A DNA stretch of 28,274 nucleotides from a virus: UHGV virus genome UHGV-1752292; one strand, given 5' to 3'. The first letter of the stretch is position 1. Every line of letters begins with the position of its first letter. A program made the position numbers and the translations under genes. The notes under the pieces were generated by a model, which was not told the origin of the DNA, did no database searches, and saw only the letters and a list, made by a program, of their open reading frames with translations. This document shows positions 6,960-18,088 of the stretch, in pieces.

Positions 6960-7216
6960 GTAAGCCTCTTTTAAGTAACTATTAAGTTTTAATCTTTTAT
7001 CTTAACGTATTCTATACGTTATACTTTAAAGCTTTTTAAAAGCTATTAAATAATCTTTTAAGAGTTTTAAAGTATCTGTATAGTTAAACTGTTAAGTAAC
7101 CTTTTAAGTAAAAACCCACTTCGCAAAGATTAACACCTTGTCAAGTACATTGTCAACTTGCTTTTTATAATTTTTTGCAGTAATGTATGAGGTTAATGAT
7201 TTTAGAGGGAGTAAAA
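6960..7216. promoter_or_regulatory. Divergent AT-rich intergenic control region
   Basis: About 255 bp of AT-rich non-coding DNA between divergently transcribed operons; TATAAT at 7166-7171 about 45 nt upstream of the polymerase start; near-palindrome AGCTTTTTAAAAGCT (7030-7044); recurring CTTTTAAG(A/T) motifs. No clean -35 could be paired with the -10. Confidence 0.4.
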
Positions 7217-9359
7217 ATGGAAAACGTAGATTTTAAAAACTTACATTTAGTTGGTGATACAGAGACTGATGGTTTACTCCTTGAGTTCACTAAGGTGCAC
7301 GTAATGGCTTTCGCAGACTATAAATCTGACGATGAAGAGCCTCCTGTATGGGTCTTTACAGATGAGCCTATCCTCGGTCACAAGTATACCAAGTACATTA
7401 AGGGTGGCTTGCGTGAAGGTGTTGAGTTTGCGTTAAAGGCAAAACGACTTTGCATCCATAATGGTTTAGGGTATGACTGGTGGGTTTTCAATCATATTGC
7501 ACCTGATTTGTGGAACTTTGATAATCCAAAGTGTAAGCCGTGGAGTAATTTCTTTCAGGATTCTCTTATCCAGTCTCGTGTTCAGTGGATGGATAGACCA
7601 ACTCCAAAGGGCTATAAAGGTGCTCATGGCTTGGCAGCATGGGGTGCTCGTGTTGGTGTACGTAAACCAGAGATTGAACATTGGGGTGTGTGGAATGCAG
7701 AAATCTTCACTCGTGTTGTAGAAGATATTCGTATTAACGCCAAAACTAAACGTGCACTGGATAATGAATATCTCAAGCTAAAGAAGTGTGGCGTAGATAC
7801 TTATGAAACCTACATGCGAGCTAAAGAAACATCTTTCTGGATGAGTCAACAAGCTATCAATGGTTGGAAAGCTGATAAAGAGCTTATGGAGTTCCATGTA
7901 AAGGAACTTGACAAGTTGACTAATGAACTTGCTTCAGAGGTTGAACCACATCTACCTCCAACTATTAAGACCAAAGGTAAAGTCACTGGAGAAGAGTTTG
8001 CAAAAGCTTGGAATGAGTATGTTGAAACATTCGGTCATGCAGATGGACTGAAGAGGATTACCAAGTACCCTAAGACAAAGTATCGTCAGCAGGTACGTAA
8101 CGGTGAGATGCAGACATATGAAATCAAGCCATTTGGTAAACCAACTACCAAAATTTTTAACATTGAAAAGCGGAATTGCTATACACCAACCAACTCCGTA
8201 ACTGGTGAAGAGTACAAGGAAGGTTTTGTAGCAATGAAGGATGCTCGTGCAATTTGCAATGAGTTGAATGCAAAGATTGGTAAGAAGTGCAAAGACTGGA
8301 AGCCAGTAAAAACAGTTAAAACTGTGAAGTACTATAATAGCCATGTTGTTAACCACTTTGAACTTGAGTCAAGTCGCTACACAGGTTTGATTGATGCACC
8401 ATATACACCAATTGAGTTCGAAGTTTCTCGTATGACTCAAGTAGCAGTTGTTAAAGACTACTTGAAATCAGTTGGTTGGATTCCAGATGACTGGAACTAC
8501 AAGAAAGACTCAGATGGTCGTCCTGTTAAGGTTTGTCGTTTCAAAGACAACAAAAAGATGATTACAAAACATCCTAAGTGGGATGAGATGGTGGAACGGT
8601 GTGGTTTGAGTTATGTTGAACATGAAGGTGTCCAGTACATTGAACATAACTGGTCTGTGAAGAAGTACACAGATTTGCTTGAACCTTGCTTAATCCGTAC
8701 TTCACCAAAACTTACTGAATCATCTTATGATACGATTGAAGGTGAACTTGGACAGAAGATTGCTAAGTACTACACTTTGATGCACCGACGCAGAACTATT
8801 GAGAACTCAAAGGATGATGAAAAAGGTTGGTTGAACCAGATTCGTCCTGATGGTCGCCTTAGTGCTGGTGCAATGGTGTTTGGTACTTCAACTGGACGTA
8901 TGACACAATATGGTATTGTAAACGTACCATCTGGTGCTGCTGTCTATGGAGCGCCTATGAGGGAGGTTTGGATTTGCGAGGAAGGGACTAATATCGTTTC
9001 AGTTGACCAGAACTCTGCACAGCTTGTTTTACTGTGCAACTTTATGGGTGATAAAGACTTCACCAAAGCGGTAACTGAAGGTAAAGAGTTTGTAGAGTTC
9101 ACTAAACAGGATGATGGACGATACTACTGCAAGCATCTTGATAAGTACCTAAATCCAGAGGCTGATAAATATTGTCGTTACGATGCTGATAACGATTTGT
9201 ATGAAGTCTACACAGGTACTGATGCGCATACACTTAACAGTATCTATTTTGCATTGAACAAAGAAGAAGATATTATCCGTTGTAGAGAGACACAGGATGA
9301 GGAACTTCTTCACGAGATAACTAAAGGCCGTAAGAAGGCTAAGAATGGTATCTATGCGT
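7217..9359 (+). CDS. DNA polymerase (family A, T7 gp5-like), exon 1
   Basis: ATG at 7217 preceded by AGAGGGA (the track ORF starts in-frame at 7187). 3'-5' exonuclease Exo I motif VGDTETDGL near the N-terminus; motif A-like IVSVDQNSAQL; frame runs into the first half of motif B (AKNGIYA) before the intron. Exon end set by the predicted P1 helix (see findings). Confidence 0.8.
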
Positions 9360-10164
9360 CAGTGGCGCATGTAAAACGTTGTGAATTGCTGGAAGCCTAA
9401 GTCTTAAAAGATATGGTAATCAGCAGCGAAGTCTCTGTTAGGACTCCTATAGTAGAAATGGGAGAGAGACAATGGTAGGTTATAAAGAGAGAGTTTGTTC
9501 CAGATGTGGCGAAGAGTTTAAGCCATATCAGTACAATCAAAAACGTTGCAGAAACTGCGTTCTTGAAGTAGACAGGAGAGCAGCAAGCCGTGTCATAGAA
9601 AAGGTATGTCCAAGCTGCAATAACCAATTCACACCTAGAACAGCAAGACAGACATATTGCAGTTCTGCATGTGGAGAAAAGGGAAAGGTAAAGAACTACT
9701 ACTTAAGGACTTACGGCCTAGAAAGAGAAGAGGTTGAAGAGTTGTTAAGTAAATGTGGCCATAAGTGCCAAATCTGTGGCGGTGAAGGTTTCATCATGAA
9801 TGGTTCAAGACATAAAGCTAAACTTGTTGTTGACCATGACCACAAAACAGGTAAGGTGAGAGGGATGTTGTGCCACAACTGTAACAGAGGTCTTGGCTTG
9901 TTCTCAGACAGTGTAGATAATATGCAGAGAGCAATTGCATACCTTAGTAAACAATAGTATTTTAGAGTTCCTAACAGAGAAACGTTCAGAGACTATCGAA
10001 AAGCATACTTAATGTATGAACTGAGTAGAGTAGGGTGGTAAGCTAATGACCATTCCCAAGTGCAACGGTAGTATTACTACTACGTGATATAGTCCGACAC
10101 TCCGTAGAAATGCGGAGAAGTTCATAAGAGAACTGGTACACCTTGCGAGTGTATTGACCAGATG
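9360..10164 (+). mobile_element. Group I self-splicing intron (805 nt) carrying a homing endonuclease ORF
   Basis: P-like element AATTGCTGGAAG (9384-9395) pairing with Q-like AATCAGCAGC (9418-9427); R-like GTTCAGAGACTA (9984-9995) and S-like GATATAGTCC (10086-10095) able to form P7; predicted P1 with U-G pair at the 5' splice site; intron ends in G10164; ORF sits between Q and R (P6 loop). Confidence 0.7.
9472..9957 (+). CDS. Intron-encoded HNH homing endonuclease (Endonuclease VII-like)
   Basis: 161 aa; VVDHDHKTGKVRGMLCHNCNRGLGLF matches the T4 endonuclease VII / HNH core (DHDH…GKVRG.LC..CN); two N-terminal CxxC pairs; GGGAGAGAGA RBS upstream. Confidence 0.8.
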   Translation: MVGYKERVCSRCGEEFKPYQYNQKRCRNCVLEVDRRAASRVIEKVCPSCNNQFTPRTARQTYCSSACGEKGKVKNYYLRTYGLEREEVEELLSKCGHKCQICGGEGFIMNGSRHKAKLVVDHDHKTGKVRGMLCHNCNRGLGLFSDSVDNMQRAIAYLSKQ

Positions 10165-10721
10165 TATTGTTCGGTGCAGGTGATGAGAAGTTTGCTAAGA
10201 CAATTAAGACTGCAACTACTCAGGAAGGTGCACTGACTAAACAGACTTACTTTATTCGTTTGCCTAAAATTAAGAAGCTGCTAGATGACTTGGAAGCTGA
10301 CTACAAAGCGACTAAAAAGGCACTTGAAGAGGTATTTGGTAAGACTGCTGCAATCTCTAAAGGGGGTTTTGTAAAGGTTGCTGGAGCTTGGTTGTGGTGT
10401 AAATCTCCACATAAGTTATTGAATTATTTGCTTATGGGTTCGGAAAGCCAGATTCAGAACGAGGCAATTAACCTCGCTTGCCGTCGTATGATTGACGAAG
10501 GTTTGATGAAGTTAAACGGTCGCAAACCAGCTATAGGTGCTCGTTTATTGTGCTCCTATCACGACGAGACGAGTTGGGAATGCCCAGAAAGTATGACGGC
10601 AGAGGTGAAAGCTGTTACTGATTGGTATTACGGACAAGCCTCTAAGAACTTAGGGCTTAAGAGTGAAACACTAGTAACTGGTACTGGTAAGGTTGGTAAG
10701 TCGTGGTTGGAAGTACATTAA
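10165..10721 (+). CDS. DNA polymerase (family A), exon 2
   Basis: Begins in the second half of motif B (LFGAGDEK, compare T7 YGAGDEK) and contains motif C (SYHDE). The track ORF 10167-10721 starts at TTG, which is not a genuine initiation codon here. Confidence 0.75.
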
Positions 10722-13449: not shown

Positions 13450-13456
13450 AAAGTTG

Positions 13457-13484
13457 TTGACATAGATAATTTGGTGAGTATACT
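13457..13484 (+). promoter_or_regulatory. Near-consensus sigma70-type promoter
   Basis: TTGACA (13457-13462) - 16 nt - TATACT (13479-13484); flanked by a 9-bp inverted repeat (13472-13480 / 13505-13513) spanning the -10 element and predicted start. Confidence 0.5.
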
Positions 13485-13515
13485 GAGCAGCATAAACCAA
13501 CGGGTACTCACCAGC

Positions 13516-13556
13516 ATCACTTAAGAGTCTTCTAAGAGGGTTTTTAAGTGATGTCT
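13516..13556. repeat. 41-nt palindromic element, copy 1
   Basis: ATCACTTAA - 19 nt - TTAAGTGAT (9-bp perfect arms); spacer contains the direct repeat TAAGAG…TAAGAG. 40/41 identical to copy 2. Confidence 0.7.
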
Positions 13557-13608
13557 GGTAAAGTATGGTTCTGTCCGGTAATGCGATGTATGCTATGGTT
13601 TGGTGTGG
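13554..13608 (+). repeat. Pentanucleotide repeat array 1 (11 units, consensus T-N-N-G-G)
   Basis: tctgg taaag tatgg ttctg tccgg taatg cgatg tatgc tatgg tttgg tgtgg: strict 5-nt register with G enriched at positions 4-5. Confidence 0.65.
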
Positions 13609-13614
13609 GTAGTT

Positions 13615-13649
13615 AGTCTCAGCTACATTAAAATGAGACTTACCTTTTT
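13615..13649 (+). terminator. Unit-1 terminal hairpin with downstream T-run (possible terminator)
   Basis: AGTCTCA - gctacattaaaa - TGAGACT (7-bp stem), then tacc and TTTTT (13645-13649); the 4-nt gap before the T-run makes terminator function uncertain. Confidence 0.35.
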
Positions 13650-13675
13650 AAAAGGTCTTTAAGAGGGTCTTTTAA

Positions 13676-13745
13676 TGAGGTTTGTTATGGTCAGGTATGG
13701 TGTGGTGTTGTAAAGTTTGGTGCGGTCAGGTTAGGCTTGGTATGG
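13676..13745 (+). repeat. Pentanucleotide repeat array 2 (14 units, consensus T-N-N-G-G)
   Basis: tgagg tttgt tatgg tcagg tatgg tgtgg tgttg taaag tttgg tgcgg tcagg ttagg cttgg tatgg; preceded by a degenerate copy of the TAAGAGGG element (13655-13675). Confidence 0.7.
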
Positions 13746-13751
13746 GTAGTT

Positions 13752-13777
13752 AATCGAAACTACATAAAAATTCGATT
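13752..13777 (+). other. Unit-2 terminal hairpin (conserved loop, different stem)
   Basis: AATCGAA - actacataaaaa - TTCGATT; an alternative mutually exclusive hairpin GTAGTT - aatcga - AACTAC (13746-13763) overlaps it. Confidence 0.5.
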
Positions 13778-13779
13778 AC

Positions 13780-13820
13780 ATCACTTAAGAGTCTTCTAAG
13801 AGGATTTTTAAGTGATGTCT
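13780..13820. repeat. 41-nt palindromic element, copy 2
   Basis: ATCACTTAAGAGTCTTCTAAGAGGATTTTTAAGTGATGTCT; one substitution relative to copy 1; 264 bp downstream of copy 1. Confidence 0.7.
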
Positions 13821-13877
13821 AGTCAGGTATTGTCCGGTATGGCAAAGCATGGTTCGGTTCGGCAGGGCTTGGTATGG
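13818..13877 (+). repeat. Pentanucleotide repeat array 3 (12 units, consensus T-N-N-G-G)
   Basis: tctag tcagg tattg tccgg tatgg caaag catgg ttcgg ttcgg caggg cttgg tatgg in 5-nt register. Confidence 0.65.
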
Positions 13878-13883
13878 AAGGAT

Positions 13884-13909
13884 GGCAGTAGCCTTATAAA
13901 AAATCTGCC
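13884..13909 (+). other. Unit-3 terminal hairpin
   Basis: GGCAG - tagccttataaaaaat - CTGCC; A-rich 3' half of the loop as in units 1 and 2. Confidence 0.4.
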
Positions 13910-13912
13910 AAA

Positions 13913-13963
13913 TAAGCTATAAAATCTGTTGACAAGTCAGGTGTTATAGCTTATTTTTATACT
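13913..13963 (+). promoter_or_regulatory. 10-bp inverted repeat enclosing a TTGACA hexamer, followed by T-run and TATACT
   Basis: TAAGCTATAA (13913-13922) / TTATAGCTTA (13944-13953) flank TTGACA (13929-13934); TTTTTAT then TATACT (13958-13963) about 40 nt upstream of the 14002 start. -35/-10 spacing of 23 is non-canonical, so this could be an operator, a terminator-like hairpin or a promoter. Confidence 0.3.
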
Positions 13964-14001
13964 CAACGTAATACAAGATTTAATATAACTTTGAGGTCAT
14001 T

Positions 14002-14385
14002 ATGAAAAAGATTTTATTAGCTGCTGCAATGGTTATGGCAATGAATTTACCAGTCAATGCAACAGAACTTCCAAATGTGGACTTATCAGGTGTTCCAGAA
14101 GATACTTGCCAGATTGTAAAAGGTGTTGCTCTGGCTAATGGTGAGTTGCTTAAACCAATCTCTGAAGAGTCTTTAACAGAGATGACTGATAAGGTAACTG
14201 ACTATCAGTATCGTGTTCTTGCAGAGTATTTCCTGCAATCTGCAAATATTAAAGAGAAGCACCCTGATGATATTGATGCGCAGGCTATGCTTAATCATCG
14301 TATCCAGTTTAAAGAGGATTTGATGCAAAAAGCTATGTATGGTGTTGAGTATTTCTTAGAAAACAGAAGCTGCACAGGTATTTGA
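14002..14385 (+). CDS. Small secreted/periplasmic protein with cleavable signal peptide
   Basis: 127 aa; N-terminus MKKILLAAAMVMAMNLPVNA/TE has the positively charged n-region, hydrophobic core and AxA-type cleavage site of a Sec signal peptide; GAGG RBS. Confidence 0.5.
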   Translation: MKKILLAAAMVMAMNLPVNATELPNVDLSGVPEDTCQIVKGVALANGELLKPISEESLTEMTDKVTDYQYRVLAEYFLQSANIKEKHPDDIDAQAMLNHRIQFKEDLMQKAMYGVEYFLENRSCTGI

Positions 14386-14386
14386 T

Positions 14387-14599
14387 ATGGCTCTTAAAAA
14401 GTTACATCCCAGAAGCGGTTATGGTAAGATAATTGATGATACAGACGGCTTTACAGTCTTTACAGTTATCTGTCAAGATGATTCACAGATTGAAAAGGCT
14501 CTTGATGATTATCTTAACGATGAACGTGAAAAGGTTAGGGCTACAAACATAGATTCATTGATTGACACTTCACGAAAACGGAAGAAGAAAGATGAATGA
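14387..14599 (+). CDS. Hypothetical protein
   Basis: 70-aa ORF starting 1 nt after the preceding stop; charged, Lys-rich C-terminus. Confidence 0.45.
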   Translation: MALKKLHPRSGYGKIIDDTDGFTVFTVICQDDSQIEKALDDYLNDEREKVRATNIDSLIDTSRKRKKKDE

Positions 14600-14891
14600 G
14601 GTTTTTGACCCTTATGCTCCACAAGATGATTGGGAGGCTGACAGAGAGGCTGAAATGGAGAGTTATATTTGTCCAATGGATGTAGACGAAATGAGAGACT
14701 TCGTTGCACATCGTTTTAAGAGAGAGATTAAATCCAGAGGTCTTTCTCAAGAGCAAGTTGCTAAAATTTGTGGTATCTCTCAGGCTCGTGTATCCAACAT
14801 AATCAACCTCACTGGTAATGTCTCTCTTGAGTTTATGTTGGAAGTATGTGAAAAATTTGGTGTTAATTTTAATTTAAGGTTGGCAGATTAA
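14592..14891 (+). CDS. Helix-turn-helix (XRE-like) DNA-binding protein
   Basis: Start chosen at ATG 14592 (MNEVFDP…), overlapping the preceding ORF by 8 nt; LSQEQVAKICGISQARVSNIINLTGNVSLEFMLEVCEKFGV resembles the Cro/CI-type HTH. Confidence 0.5.
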   Translation: MNEVFDPYAPQDDWEADREAEMESYICPMDVDEMRDFVAHRFKREIKSRGLSQEQVAKICGISQARVSNIINLTGNVSLEFMLEVCEKFGVNFNLRLAD

Positions 14892-17485: not shown

Positions 17486-17529
17486 AACAAAAAAAGGCTC
17501 CCGTAAAAAGGAGCCTTAAACTTTATTTT
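17484..17529. terminator. Bidirectional intrinsic terminator between convergent operons
   Basis: Hairpin AAGGCTCC - 8-nt loop - GGAGCCTT (17494-17517) between the thymidylate synthase stop (17485) and the stop of the minus-strand 123-aa gene (17523). Minus-strand RNA gets a direct U-run (A-run 17484-17493); plus-strand RNA gets TTTATTTTT slightly downstream. Confidence 0.6.
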
Positions 17530-17894
17530 TCAGTATTCTTTGTGTTCTTTTCAGTAATAGCTTGGAGGGCTGATACTGATTGAGCCAGATTGTTCACACT
17601 ATCAGAGAATTTATCAAGAGTCTTAGTAAGTTTTGCGTTCTCACCCTTAACATTCTCTAACTGGACTTTCTGGTTCTCCATCCCTAGCTGAAGCAGCCTC
17701 ATATCAGACTGTAAATCACGAATAGCTGAATAATTACTTTTGGAATAATTATCTAACTGCTGTAACTTTGTTGTGATAGACACTTCTTGCTTACCATCCG
17801 AGACTTGCATGGTGGTATACATCCCAATAACACTAAAAATACCAACTACAATTGCACCAATATTATTTTTAAAAGCTTCCTCCAGCCACTTCAT
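17523..17894 (-). CDS. Membrane-anchored coiled-coil protein (possible spanin-like or lysis-associated)
   Basis: 123 aa; N-terminal hydrophobic helix (IGAIVVGIFSVIGMYTT) then Gln/Leu-rich coiled-coil-like sequence; last gene of the late operon; start overlaps the previous stop (ATGA). Confidence 0.4.
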   Translation of the reverse strand: MKWLEEAFKNNIGAIVVGIFSVIGMYTTMQVSDGKQEVSITTKLQQLDNYSKSNYSAIRDLQSDMRLLQLGMENQKVQLENVKGENAKLTKTLDKFSDSVNNLAQSVSALQAITEKNTKNTEK

Positions 17895-18088
17895 TTATTC
17901 TCCCCCTTAAAAGCTTTTTCTAAGTTATCTACGAACTCATCATCAATAGGTGTGTCTGTTTTACTCGCAAGGTATCTTGCAAGCCTAAAGAACACTTTCT
18001 CAATCATGTATTCACTTAGAAGGGATAAAATGAGTTTCCAGAAGAAGCTACCTAGATTTTTTAGAAGAATTGCTAGGATTGTAGGCAT
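17891..18088 (-). CDS. Small membrane protein (possible holin-like)
   Basis: 65 aa with hydrophobic segment ILAILLKNLGSFFWKLILSLL and charged C-terminus; GAGGTGA RBS; sits between the tail fiber gene and the 123-aa membrane protein. Confidence 0.35.
   Translation of the reverse strand: MPTILAILLKNLGSFFWKLILSLLSEYMIEKVFFRLARYLASKTDTPIDDEFVDNLEKAFKGENK

Follow-up and report, generated by a model that had tools for sequence, protein, structure and literature searches.

ORF87 of Felix-O1-like phages belongs to a narrow family of predicted Sec-exported three-helix proteins with a possible role in protecting the infected-cell envelope

Introduction

What does the first open reading frame past the repeat locus of a Felixounavirus genome encode, where in the infected cell would its product act, and what might it do there? 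We address these questions for the window, a stretch of viral DNA of 28,274 nucleotides in which the repeat locus occupies positions 13515-13880 and the ORF of interest follows at 14002-14385 on the plus strand. The window is from a Felixounavirus, and about 200 Felixounavirus genomes match a 1.9-kb region of it at 92-96% identity. Typing of Salmonella and E. coli, biocontrol and therapy cocktails all make wide use of Felix-O1-like phages. An earlier note on this DNA, made from the sequence alone, had described the ORF as the first gene after the repeats and as part of an early region. It had proposed that the 127-amino-acid product carries a textbook Sec signal peptide and is exported as a mature protein of about 107 residues, and had pointed to an upstream palindrome flanking a TTGACA hexamer.

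Results and Discussion

The ORF is a real and transcribed gene of Felix-O1-like phages

The coding sequence (14002..14385, plus strand) comprises an ATG start codon, 127 codons in total and a TGA stop. A Shine-Dalgarno sequence, GAGG, can be read 5 nt before the ATG (13993..13996, plus strand) and is conserved as GAGG or GGAGG in relatives. The protein matches PHROG 4332, to which no function is assigned, from end to end (residues 1-127 against profile positions 1-126 of 126; E 2.8e-66). It is the ortholog of Felix O1 ORF87 (NP_944938), a protein of 127 aa and pI 4.8, from which it is no different in itself (equal length, 98.4% amino acid identity); only the upstream spacer differs. Identity to P0001 is 97%. 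ORF87 is also listed as pVOG VOG4947 and occurs as a hypothetical protein in more than 250 Ounavirinae genomes, so it is already represented in databases.

In Felix O1, the ORF87 transcript was RT-PCR positive and maximal at 25 min after infection, and the same 25-min ("middle") class also holds ligase (88), DNA polymerase (96), ORFs 83 and 84, and thymidylate synthase (80) (PMC3185647). ORF87 is therefore transcribed, and belongs to the replication-phase class and not to the 5-min class. The ORF does follow the repeat locus directly, as the earlier note had it, but the early region suggested there is only partly borne out, the transcript peaking in the middle class (PMC3185647). In the literature we found no functional study of the gene; only the Felix O1 genome paper carries data on ORF87. 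The full-length match to PHROG 4332, the occurrence in 259 phage records, the low dN/dS and the RT-PCR-positive ortholog together identify 14002-14385 as a real and strongly conserved gene of Felix-O1-like phages, transcribed in the case of the Felix O1 ortholog.

Two tightly packed genes follow on the plus strand (14387..14891), encoding a 70-aa protein (p70; 14387-14599) and an HTH_3 regulator (14592-14891), and the stop codon of the 14002-14385 ORF almost touches the next ATG at 14387. The genes for the signal peptide protein, the 63-70-aa protein and the HTH protein remain together in every lineage examined. Family members share this position, with the DNA ligase gene upstream and the 63-70-aa gene and the HTH_3 regulator immediately downstream. 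For example, the order in phage nataliec is DNA polymerase, HNH endonuclease, small ORFs, DNA ligase, the ORF87-family gene, the 70-aa ORF and the HTH regulator, beyond which lie three ORFs, dihydrofolate reductase (DHFR), thymidylate synthase and then a convergently oriented "holin" gene and tail fibers.

The family is narrow and diverges strongly between genera

An exhaustive phmmer search with the mature domain against 1.84 billion cluster representatives returned four real clusters and one false positive, the repetitive cluster P0008, which was rejected. A profile search of a set of 5.8 billion proteins yielded 33 clusters at 90% identity; those with a longest contig above about 65 kb sit on contigs of 67-91 kb. 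The family splits into four lineages, every one of which occurs in Ounavirinae that infect Enterobacteriaceae, namely, in members of Felixounavirus, Mooglevirus and Suspvirus and of an uncultured lineage. Its most divergent member, P0007, comes from a metagenomic contig of 74 kb with unchanged gene order, and tblastn with this member uncovered no further phage groups.

By tblastn, 259 records of the phage collection contain the gene; identity is at least 90% in 215 of them, 60-80% in 1 and below 60% in 43. The neighboring p119 gene was present in 258 Felix-, Moogle- or Susp-type records and in 43 records of more distant Ounavirinae (Erwinia, Hafnia and phage ST-3). Judging from this comparison of 259 with 258 records, essentially no Felixounavirus, Mooglevirus or Suspvirus genome lacks ORF87, a core gene among the Ounavirinae of Enterobacteriaceae hosts. 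In more distantly related Ounavirinae (Erwinia, Hafnia, ST-3), ORF87 is absent or unrecognizable, and a positional analog was rejected because the trio of signal peptide protein, p70 and HTH genes is missing there. Kolesnikvirus has an unrelated 292-aa lipoprotein nearby instead.

Within Felixounavirus, the gene is under strong purifying selection, with dN/dS of 0.028-0.043 at dS of 0.16-0.24. Between genera, ORF87 is the most diverged gene of the block, at 30-34% identity versus 52-86% for most neighbors: p70 52-63%, DHFR 54-67%, p119 60-71%, the HTH regulator 60-77%, thymidylate synthase 68-84% and ligase 85-86%. The sole neighbor of comparable divergence is p171 (32-41%).

A Sec signal peptide is predicted throughout the family

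Residues 1-20 (MKKILLAAAMVMAMNLPVNA; 14002..14061, plus strand) are predicted, by heuristic scoring and by comparison, to form a Sec signal peptide that signal peptidase I (SPase I) would cut after Ala20, between VNA and TE. The n-region contains two Lys, the h-region consists of 13 uncharged residues with a best 10-residue Kyte-Doolittle mean of 2.73, and the cleavage site is preceded by Pro at -4, Val at -3 and Ala at -1. In this heuristic scoring, the window protein thus combines the charged n-region, the h-region of 7-15 residues and the small residues at -3/-1 of a Sec/SPase I leader, so that the textbook signal peptide of the earlier note is present as described; the same features were seen in all 33 family clusters. 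A second hydrophobic segment was looked for beyond the leader and not found, the maximum 19-residue mean in the mature part being 0.71. The two strands of the window hold 434 start/ORF combinations encoding 50 aa or more; 3 of them passed a crude leader filter, and among these 14002-14385 was the sole ATG-initiated gene.

Comparison extends this prediction to four diverged lineages (Felix type, SUSP/Moogle type, Sf13/ESh22 type and P0007), at about 30-35% identity to the window protein. In members of all four, an N-terminal MKK is followed by an uncharged stretch of hydrophobic residues and, at residues 18-20, by a small-x-small site (VNA, ASA, AVA or AYA); across the lineages, 4-9 of 18-19 leader residues are held in common with the window protein. 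Cys36 and Cys124 are invariant in all 33 clusters. Two invariant cysteines in the mature part are the pattern expected of a structural disulfide in the oxidizing periplasm. A natural recombinant pattern is found in Shigella phage vB_SflM_004, which has Moogle-like neighbors: its DNA is of the Felix type over the promoter, 5'UTR and leader and of the Moogle type from the cleavage-site codons onward. This swap exactly at the predicted cleavage site indicates that the leader is an interchangeable targeting module.

We consider it very likely that the precursors of the ORF87 family are exported by Sec and cleaved, as predicted, and export of the mature product of about 107 residues, as proposed earlier, gains strong support from the leaders, the cysteines and the leader swap. 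A product that stays unexported could arise by translation from an internal Met (M10, M12 or M14), three in-frame Met codons being present inside the leader, or the N terminus could serve as an uncleaved membrane anchor. However, the Shine-Dalgarno sequence is spaced for Met1, MKK does not vary, and lineages without the internal Mets retain the leader architecture. In addition, a 13-residue core followed by P-x-x-A is too short for a stable anchor, and the two invariant cysteines suit an oxidizing compartment. Both forms of this alternative together appear highly improbable to us.

The predicted cleavage is that of SPase I. A lipobox, [LVI][ASTVI][GAS]C, was looked for at the end of the leader and not found, and the window protein has no Cys in residues 1-35. 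Sf13-type leaders do contain a Cys7 following I-A-L, at the start of the h-region, which is too N-terminal for a lipobox. A lipoprotein processed by SPase II was ruled out on the missing lipobox. Weak database matches of the window protein were confined to other Sec leaders, namely, those of fimbrial StaA (18 bits, NCBIfam) and of T4 Spackle (residues 1-25).

The mature domain is modeled as a three-helix bundle with polar conservation

The mature part is an acidic domain of 107 aa (14062..14382, plus strand), described here by an AlphaFold (AF2) model and by segment conservation. The model obtained from the single sequence was poor (pLDDT 49). Modeling with the 33-sequence family alignment gave a mean pLDDT of 88.2 and a pTM of 0.76, with blocks over residues 21-127 at 87-99 and mostly above 90. 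Helices are predicted at residues 31-45, 55-86 and 93-121, and the short helix 1 packs against the upper half of a long antiparallel helical hairpin. Cys36 (codon 14107-14109) is positioned within helix 1 and Cys124 (codon 14371-14373) just past helix 3; from this model topology and the invariance of both residues, we infer a Cys36-Cys124 disulfide.

Across lineages, the most conserved segments are the loop 46-54 (GELxKPxS) and the C-terminal RxCxG. Most variable are residues 71-107, the distal half of the hairpin, in which 2-3 of 16, 0-1 of 6 and 1-4 of 15 residues match the window protein in three sub-segments. This polar distribution suggests a binding surface at the conserved end and a tip that is either free to vary or bears specificity.

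The earlier note had called for a structure prediction, and the confident three-helix model now available resembles no known family. Pfam contains no domain that matches the window protein and returned nothing significant over all 33 members. Searches of NCBIfam, PADLOC and PDB sequences (profile) were likewise without significant result, the StaA match of 18 bits representing leader similarity. Foldseek found no match below E 0.6 in the PDB, and the single return from BFVD was the family's own Sf13 member. Generic antiparallel three-helix bundles (domain I of ribosome-recycling factor, syntaxin Habc and designed binders) share 2-12% identity with the model, a resemblance at the level of the fold only; they are unrelated in biology and location, and their Foldseek E-values are all above 0.6. 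The ORF87 protein belongs to no characterized family, and these comparisons revealed no exclusion, lysis or inhibitor protein related to it by sequence or fold.

A possible role at the envelope of the infected cell

The earlier note had suggested superinfection exclusion, receptor masking or cell-wall modulation, a reasonable choice of candidate roles. Small exported proteins of virulent coliphages classically serve in superinfection exclusion. In phage T4 it involves Spackle (Sp, gp61.3), a periplasmic inhibitor of the gp5 tail lysozyme. By analogy only, ORF87 is similar to Spackle in several respects: both come from virulent E. coli myoviruses, both are small precursors (97 aa for Spackle versus 127 aa for the window protein) with a cleavable MKK-type Sec leader (predicted here for ORF87) and two cysteines in the mature part, and both genes lie among replication genes. 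Homology to Spackle was rejected, with an hhalign probability of 17.9% and only residues 1-25, the leaders, aligned. Pfam identified no lysozyme or peptidoglycan-hydrolase domain in the ten tail, baseplate and spike ORFs of the window, a scan that covers the window only, the tape-measure protein and other virion genes lying outside it. A literal Spackle mechanism is thus left without an identified target among the baseplate and spike genes present here. Llp of T5 and Cor of T1, phi80 and N15 are Sec-exported lipoproteins that act in the envelope to block reinfection. The window protein resembles them in being phage-encoded and, by prediction, Sec-exported; unlike them, it has neither a lipobox nor a Cys near the cleavage site, and no homology was found.

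Exclusion of a second infection, or protection of the envelope, functionally comparable to what Spackle does for T4, would be our best guess at the role of ORF87, and we rank it first while regarding it as tentative. It is consistent with a gene that is core within a genus and diverges fast between genera. A conserved target in the host would suit the conserved end of the model no less than one in a phage.

Phages of E. coli, Salmonella, Shigella and Citrobacter all preserve the conserved end, which is what a target shared by these hosts would lead one to expect, and the family is absent from the Ounavirinae of Erwinia and Hafnia. Both observations would suit a protein that manipulates the host envelope rather than acting on an incoming phage. 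Such a protein could inhibit a periplasmic nuclease, protease or lytic transglycosylase, block a stress sensor, alter the display of the LPS core so as to mask the receptor or counter an envelope defense. However, there is no match to known inhibitor families or to defense-related models, a protein directed at a conserved host target would not be expected to diverge as much overall as this one does, and the data point to no candidate target that could be named. We regard this alternative as unlikely.

Regulation of lysis timing has also to be considered. T4 RI is a small antiholin that acts in the periplasm with an uncleaved SAR domain and binds holin T. A periplasmic ORF87 protein might similarly bind the periplasmic part of a lysis protein (holin, spanin or endolysin) and delay or tune lysis. 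Like RI, the window protein is a small phage protein that would act in the periplasm, according to the location predicted here, and it is predicted to be helical. The annotated "holin" (17523-17894, minus strand) has a single membrane segment at its N terminus, and its long periplasmic coiled coil might offer a docking site to a helical partner; transcription in the middle phase suits a lysis regulator. There is, however, no similarity to RI: homology was rejected at an hhalign probability of 0.2%, and the short 13-residue core followed by a good AxA site favors cleavage, in contrast to the uncleaved SAR anchor of RI. Moreover, the "holin" is 80-84% identical in lineages in which ORF87 is only 30-42% identical. 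This mismatch argues weakly against a coevolving partnership of the RI/holin type, and coevolution with the "holin" was rejected on these values. Lysis inhibition of Felix O1 was not reported in the literature found. A function in lysis timing is, in our estimate, distinctly unlikely. In the resulting order, tentative exclusion stands first, manipulation of the host envelope or counter-defense second as an unlikely option and lysis timing third with a still smaller share, the remainder falling to something else altogether.

An arbitrium-like system, in which ORF87 would be a secreted signal and the HTH protein its receptor, was rejected; the outer membrane of other cells is a barrier that a periplasmic protein of 12 kDa cannot pass, and the idea has no support.

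Taken as a whole, the explanation that we favor, which we hold to be plausible while stopping short of calling it probable, is that the ORF87 ortholog is an exported three-helix periplasmic protein, with protection of the infected cell against a second infection at the envelope as the leading, tentative candidate role. In this scheme, host sigma-70 RNA polymerase would transcribe the gene from a conserved near-consensus promoter, as the first cistron of a tight string that encodes the signal peptide protein, the 70-aa protein and the HTH regulator and leads onward to DHFR and thymidylate synthase. An upstream palindrome would act as an intrinsic terminator closing a variable cassette (repeats and sometimes two extra ORFs) and would overlap the gene's own promoter. 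The 127-aa precursor would be exported by Sec and cut after Ala20 by signal peptidase I, releasing a soluble, acidic periplasmic protein of roughly 12 kDa. This protein would fold into a three-helix bundle whose short helix 1 is tied to the C terminus by the Cys36-Cys124 disulfide. Loop 46-54 (GELxKPxS), the start of helix 2 and the C-terminal RxCxG would form the conserved end, and the hairpin tip, residues 71-107, would be almost free to vary. Through the conserved end, the protein may bind a periplasmic or envelope partner stoichiometrically.

A more far-reaching version of the exclusion reading assigns a task to the variable tip as well. The conserved end would dock on a fixed envelope component, and the hypervariable hairpin of helix 2 and helix 3 would recognize tail-tip or DNA-ejection proteins of incoming phages of the same kind, with every allelic type (Felix, Moogle, Sf13 and SUSP) thereby defining a genus-specific exclusion group. 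With ORF87, virulent myoviruses would then have a new class of periplasmic immunity factors that stands structurally apart. We put this combined reading forward as a long shot.

If exclusion is indeed the function of ORF87, the family would constitute a second, unrelated solution to the job of T4 Spackle. If secondary infection is excluded or the envelope altered, interference between related phages might affect the behavior of cocktails. On present grounds, the product is an ordinary conserved hypothetical phage protein with a well-supported, predicted cellular address. What is added here is the comparative case for export and for the disulfide, a confident fold with polar conservation, a natural leader swap and the promoter and terminator architecture. 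Small, predicted to be soluble and confidently modeled, the protein is a cheap and well-defined target for experiment in a phage group of therapeutic use.

The upstream region combines a conserved predicted promoter with a probable terminator

A sigma-70 promoter, P2, is predicted before the gene (13929..13957, plus strand), consisting of TTGACA (13929-13934), a 17-nt spacer and TATTTT (13952-13957); TATACT follows directly at 13958-13963. P2 overlaps an inverted repeat (13910..13956, plus strand) with arms at 13910-13928 and 13938-13956 and a 9-nt loop. The arms are complementary at 17 of 19 positions, the outer 13 bp perfectly, and the -35 element TTGACA of P2 lies inside the loop, confirming the palindrome around a TTGACA hexamer that had been noted before. 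A second predicted promoter, P1 (TTGACA-16-TATACT; 13457..13484, plus strand), is located proximal to the ligase gene. In the window, P1 leads into the repeat locus, and P2 and the hairpin stand before the gene.

About 90 bp of this upstream DNA (roughly 13878-13966) are 100% identical among the window, nataliec, Felix O1, Moogle, SUSP1 and vB_SflM_004, although the proteins encoded just behind it share only about 33% of their residues. The hexamer TTGACA does not vary among any of the lineages examined. In Sf13, ESh22, L014 and L016, the gene begins 85-270 bp past the preceding ORF (ligase or, in L016, a 205-aa ORF after ligase); TTGACA-16-TATACT, the homolog of P1, is placed directly ahead of the gene, and the hairpin is absent. 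The hairpin was found only where something intervenes between the preceding gene and the ORF87-family gene.

As RNA, the hairpin folds with a dG of -17.8 kcal/mol (z -3.9), and 0 of 200 shuffled sequences fold as well. It is flanked by an A-tract, AAAUAA, upstream and by a U-tract, UUAUUUUUA, downstream. The distant lineage L005 keeps the hairpin at -16.9 kcal/mol, with one A-U pair changed to G-C and two G.U changes that pair on the plus strand only. Measured against a typical terminator, the stem is AU-rich, the loop has 9 nt, a consensus scan missed the element, and the comparison consists of just two distinct sequence versions. Rfam gave no match to the upstream region. From the A-tract/stem/U-tract layout, the pairing changes in L005 and the restriction to loci with an intervening cassette, we regard the palindrome, with moderate confidence, as an intrinsic terminator or insulator, predicted to close the variable upstream cassette and overlapping the promoter of the gene.

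The dyad symmetry of the palindrome is centered on the -35 element, a Cro/CI-type HTH gene is part of the same gene string in every lineage, and the element is 100% identical between genera whose coding DNA has diverged. It might therefore act as an operator in double-stranded DNA, at which, for example, the HTH_3 regulator from two genes downstream would repress or activate the embraced promoter. The centers of the arms, however, are about 34 bp apart, far beyond the usual dimer operator. The G.U-compatible changes at two arm positions of L005 break the symmetry of the DNA and preserve RNA pairing on the plus strand, and a further arm pair of L005 is changed from A-U to G-C. In addition, Sf13, ESh22, L014 and L016 possess the HTH gene and not the palindrome, and the order of A-tract, stem and U-tract is that of an intrinsic terminator. 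An operator function of the palindrome is doubtful on this evidence, and we retain the terminator as the preferred reading. A better candidate for an operator of the downstream HTH protein is the motif ATACAA-AT-T-ATATA in the 5'UTR, which is present in all lineages.

The length of the spacer upstream of the gene varies among related phages, from 282 bp in Felix O1 through 553 bp in the window to about 1.8 kb, including two extra ORFs, in nataliec, Moogle and SUSP1.

The ligase-ORF87 spacer

The spacer that separates the ligase gene from ORF87, the gene for a small protein predicted to be exported (14002-14385, + strand), is hypervariable, based on a comparison of window positions 13450-14001 with loci L001, L002, L003, L004, L008 and L013 of related phages. 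It spans 85 bp in Sf13, 157 bp in ESh22 and 282 bp in Felix O1, where it contains one unit of a hairpin plus GGT-rich sequence. In the window, the 553-bp spacer contains three GGT-rich tracts, two of which are preceded by a CATCACTTAAGAG...AAGTGATG hairpin, and in nataliec, Moogle and SUSP1 it extends to ~1.8 kb and includes two additional ORFs of 588 and 441 bp. Judged by sequence comparison, the spacer behaves as a cassette, with the predicted ligase-proximal promoter P1 (13457) and the hairpin carrying the predicted promoter P2 (13910-13957) as its limits.

We identify Shigella phage vB_SflM_004 (L011 3899-4109) as a natural recombinant at the ORF87 locus. Its promoter, 5'UTR and signal-peptide codons are of the Felix type, and the sequence becomes Moogle-type at the cleavage-site codons and beyond. 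The invariant promoter region is probably a recombination anchor.

The ORF87 5'UTR contains the motif ATACAA-AT-T-ATATA (window ~13966-13990, with equivalents in L004, L005, L013, L014 and L016), located downstream of the promoter and ahead of the ribosome-binding site. Every lineage retains this motif, even where the promoter is of the other type, and it may serve as an operator for the HTH regulator encoded downstream (14592-14891) or as a translational element. An extended sequence, TTGACAAG(..)GGTG(T/C)T, is common to several intergenic TTGACA sites (window 11256 and 13929 on the + strand, 7144 on the - strand), which may constitute a phage-specific promoter subclass.

The trio of ORF87, the 70-aa ORF p70 and the HTH regulator is absent from Kolesnikvirus (Salmonella phage ST-3, L017; Erwinia phage phiEa21-4, L009). 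Directly upstream of the Kolesnikvirus p119 homolog is a predicted lipoprotein of 292 aa (MKKLLKNIVIAAAMVIGATSLTAC...; L017 2516-3394 in ST-3, and gp81, L009 13824-14702, in phiEa21-4), a predicted exported protein that differs from the ORF87 product and lies at a similar position.

Polymerase and lysis genes

The family-A DNA polymerase gene, a single 2.7-kb ORF in nataliec and Felix O1, is split in the window (7187-10721, + strand) into pieces of 737 aa (7187-9400, +) and 184 aa (10167-10721, +), the latter matching positions 218-379 of 381 of Pfam DNA_pol_A. The ~770 bp inserted between them, probably an intron or a homing-endonuclease insertion, contain an Endonuclease VII-family ORF (9472-9957; PF02945, E 9.5e-20).

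Lysis-gene assignments among these phages look unsettled. The product of the ORF called 'holin' in relatives (17523-17894, - strand) has a single N-terminal membrane segment followed by a coiled coil of ~90 residues, a topology equally typical of an i-spanin. Upstream of this ORF and overlapping it, a 65-aa ORF (17891-18088, - strand) is the counterpart of a product of the distant lineage L005 that matches PF26925 (Phage_PM2_Gpl).
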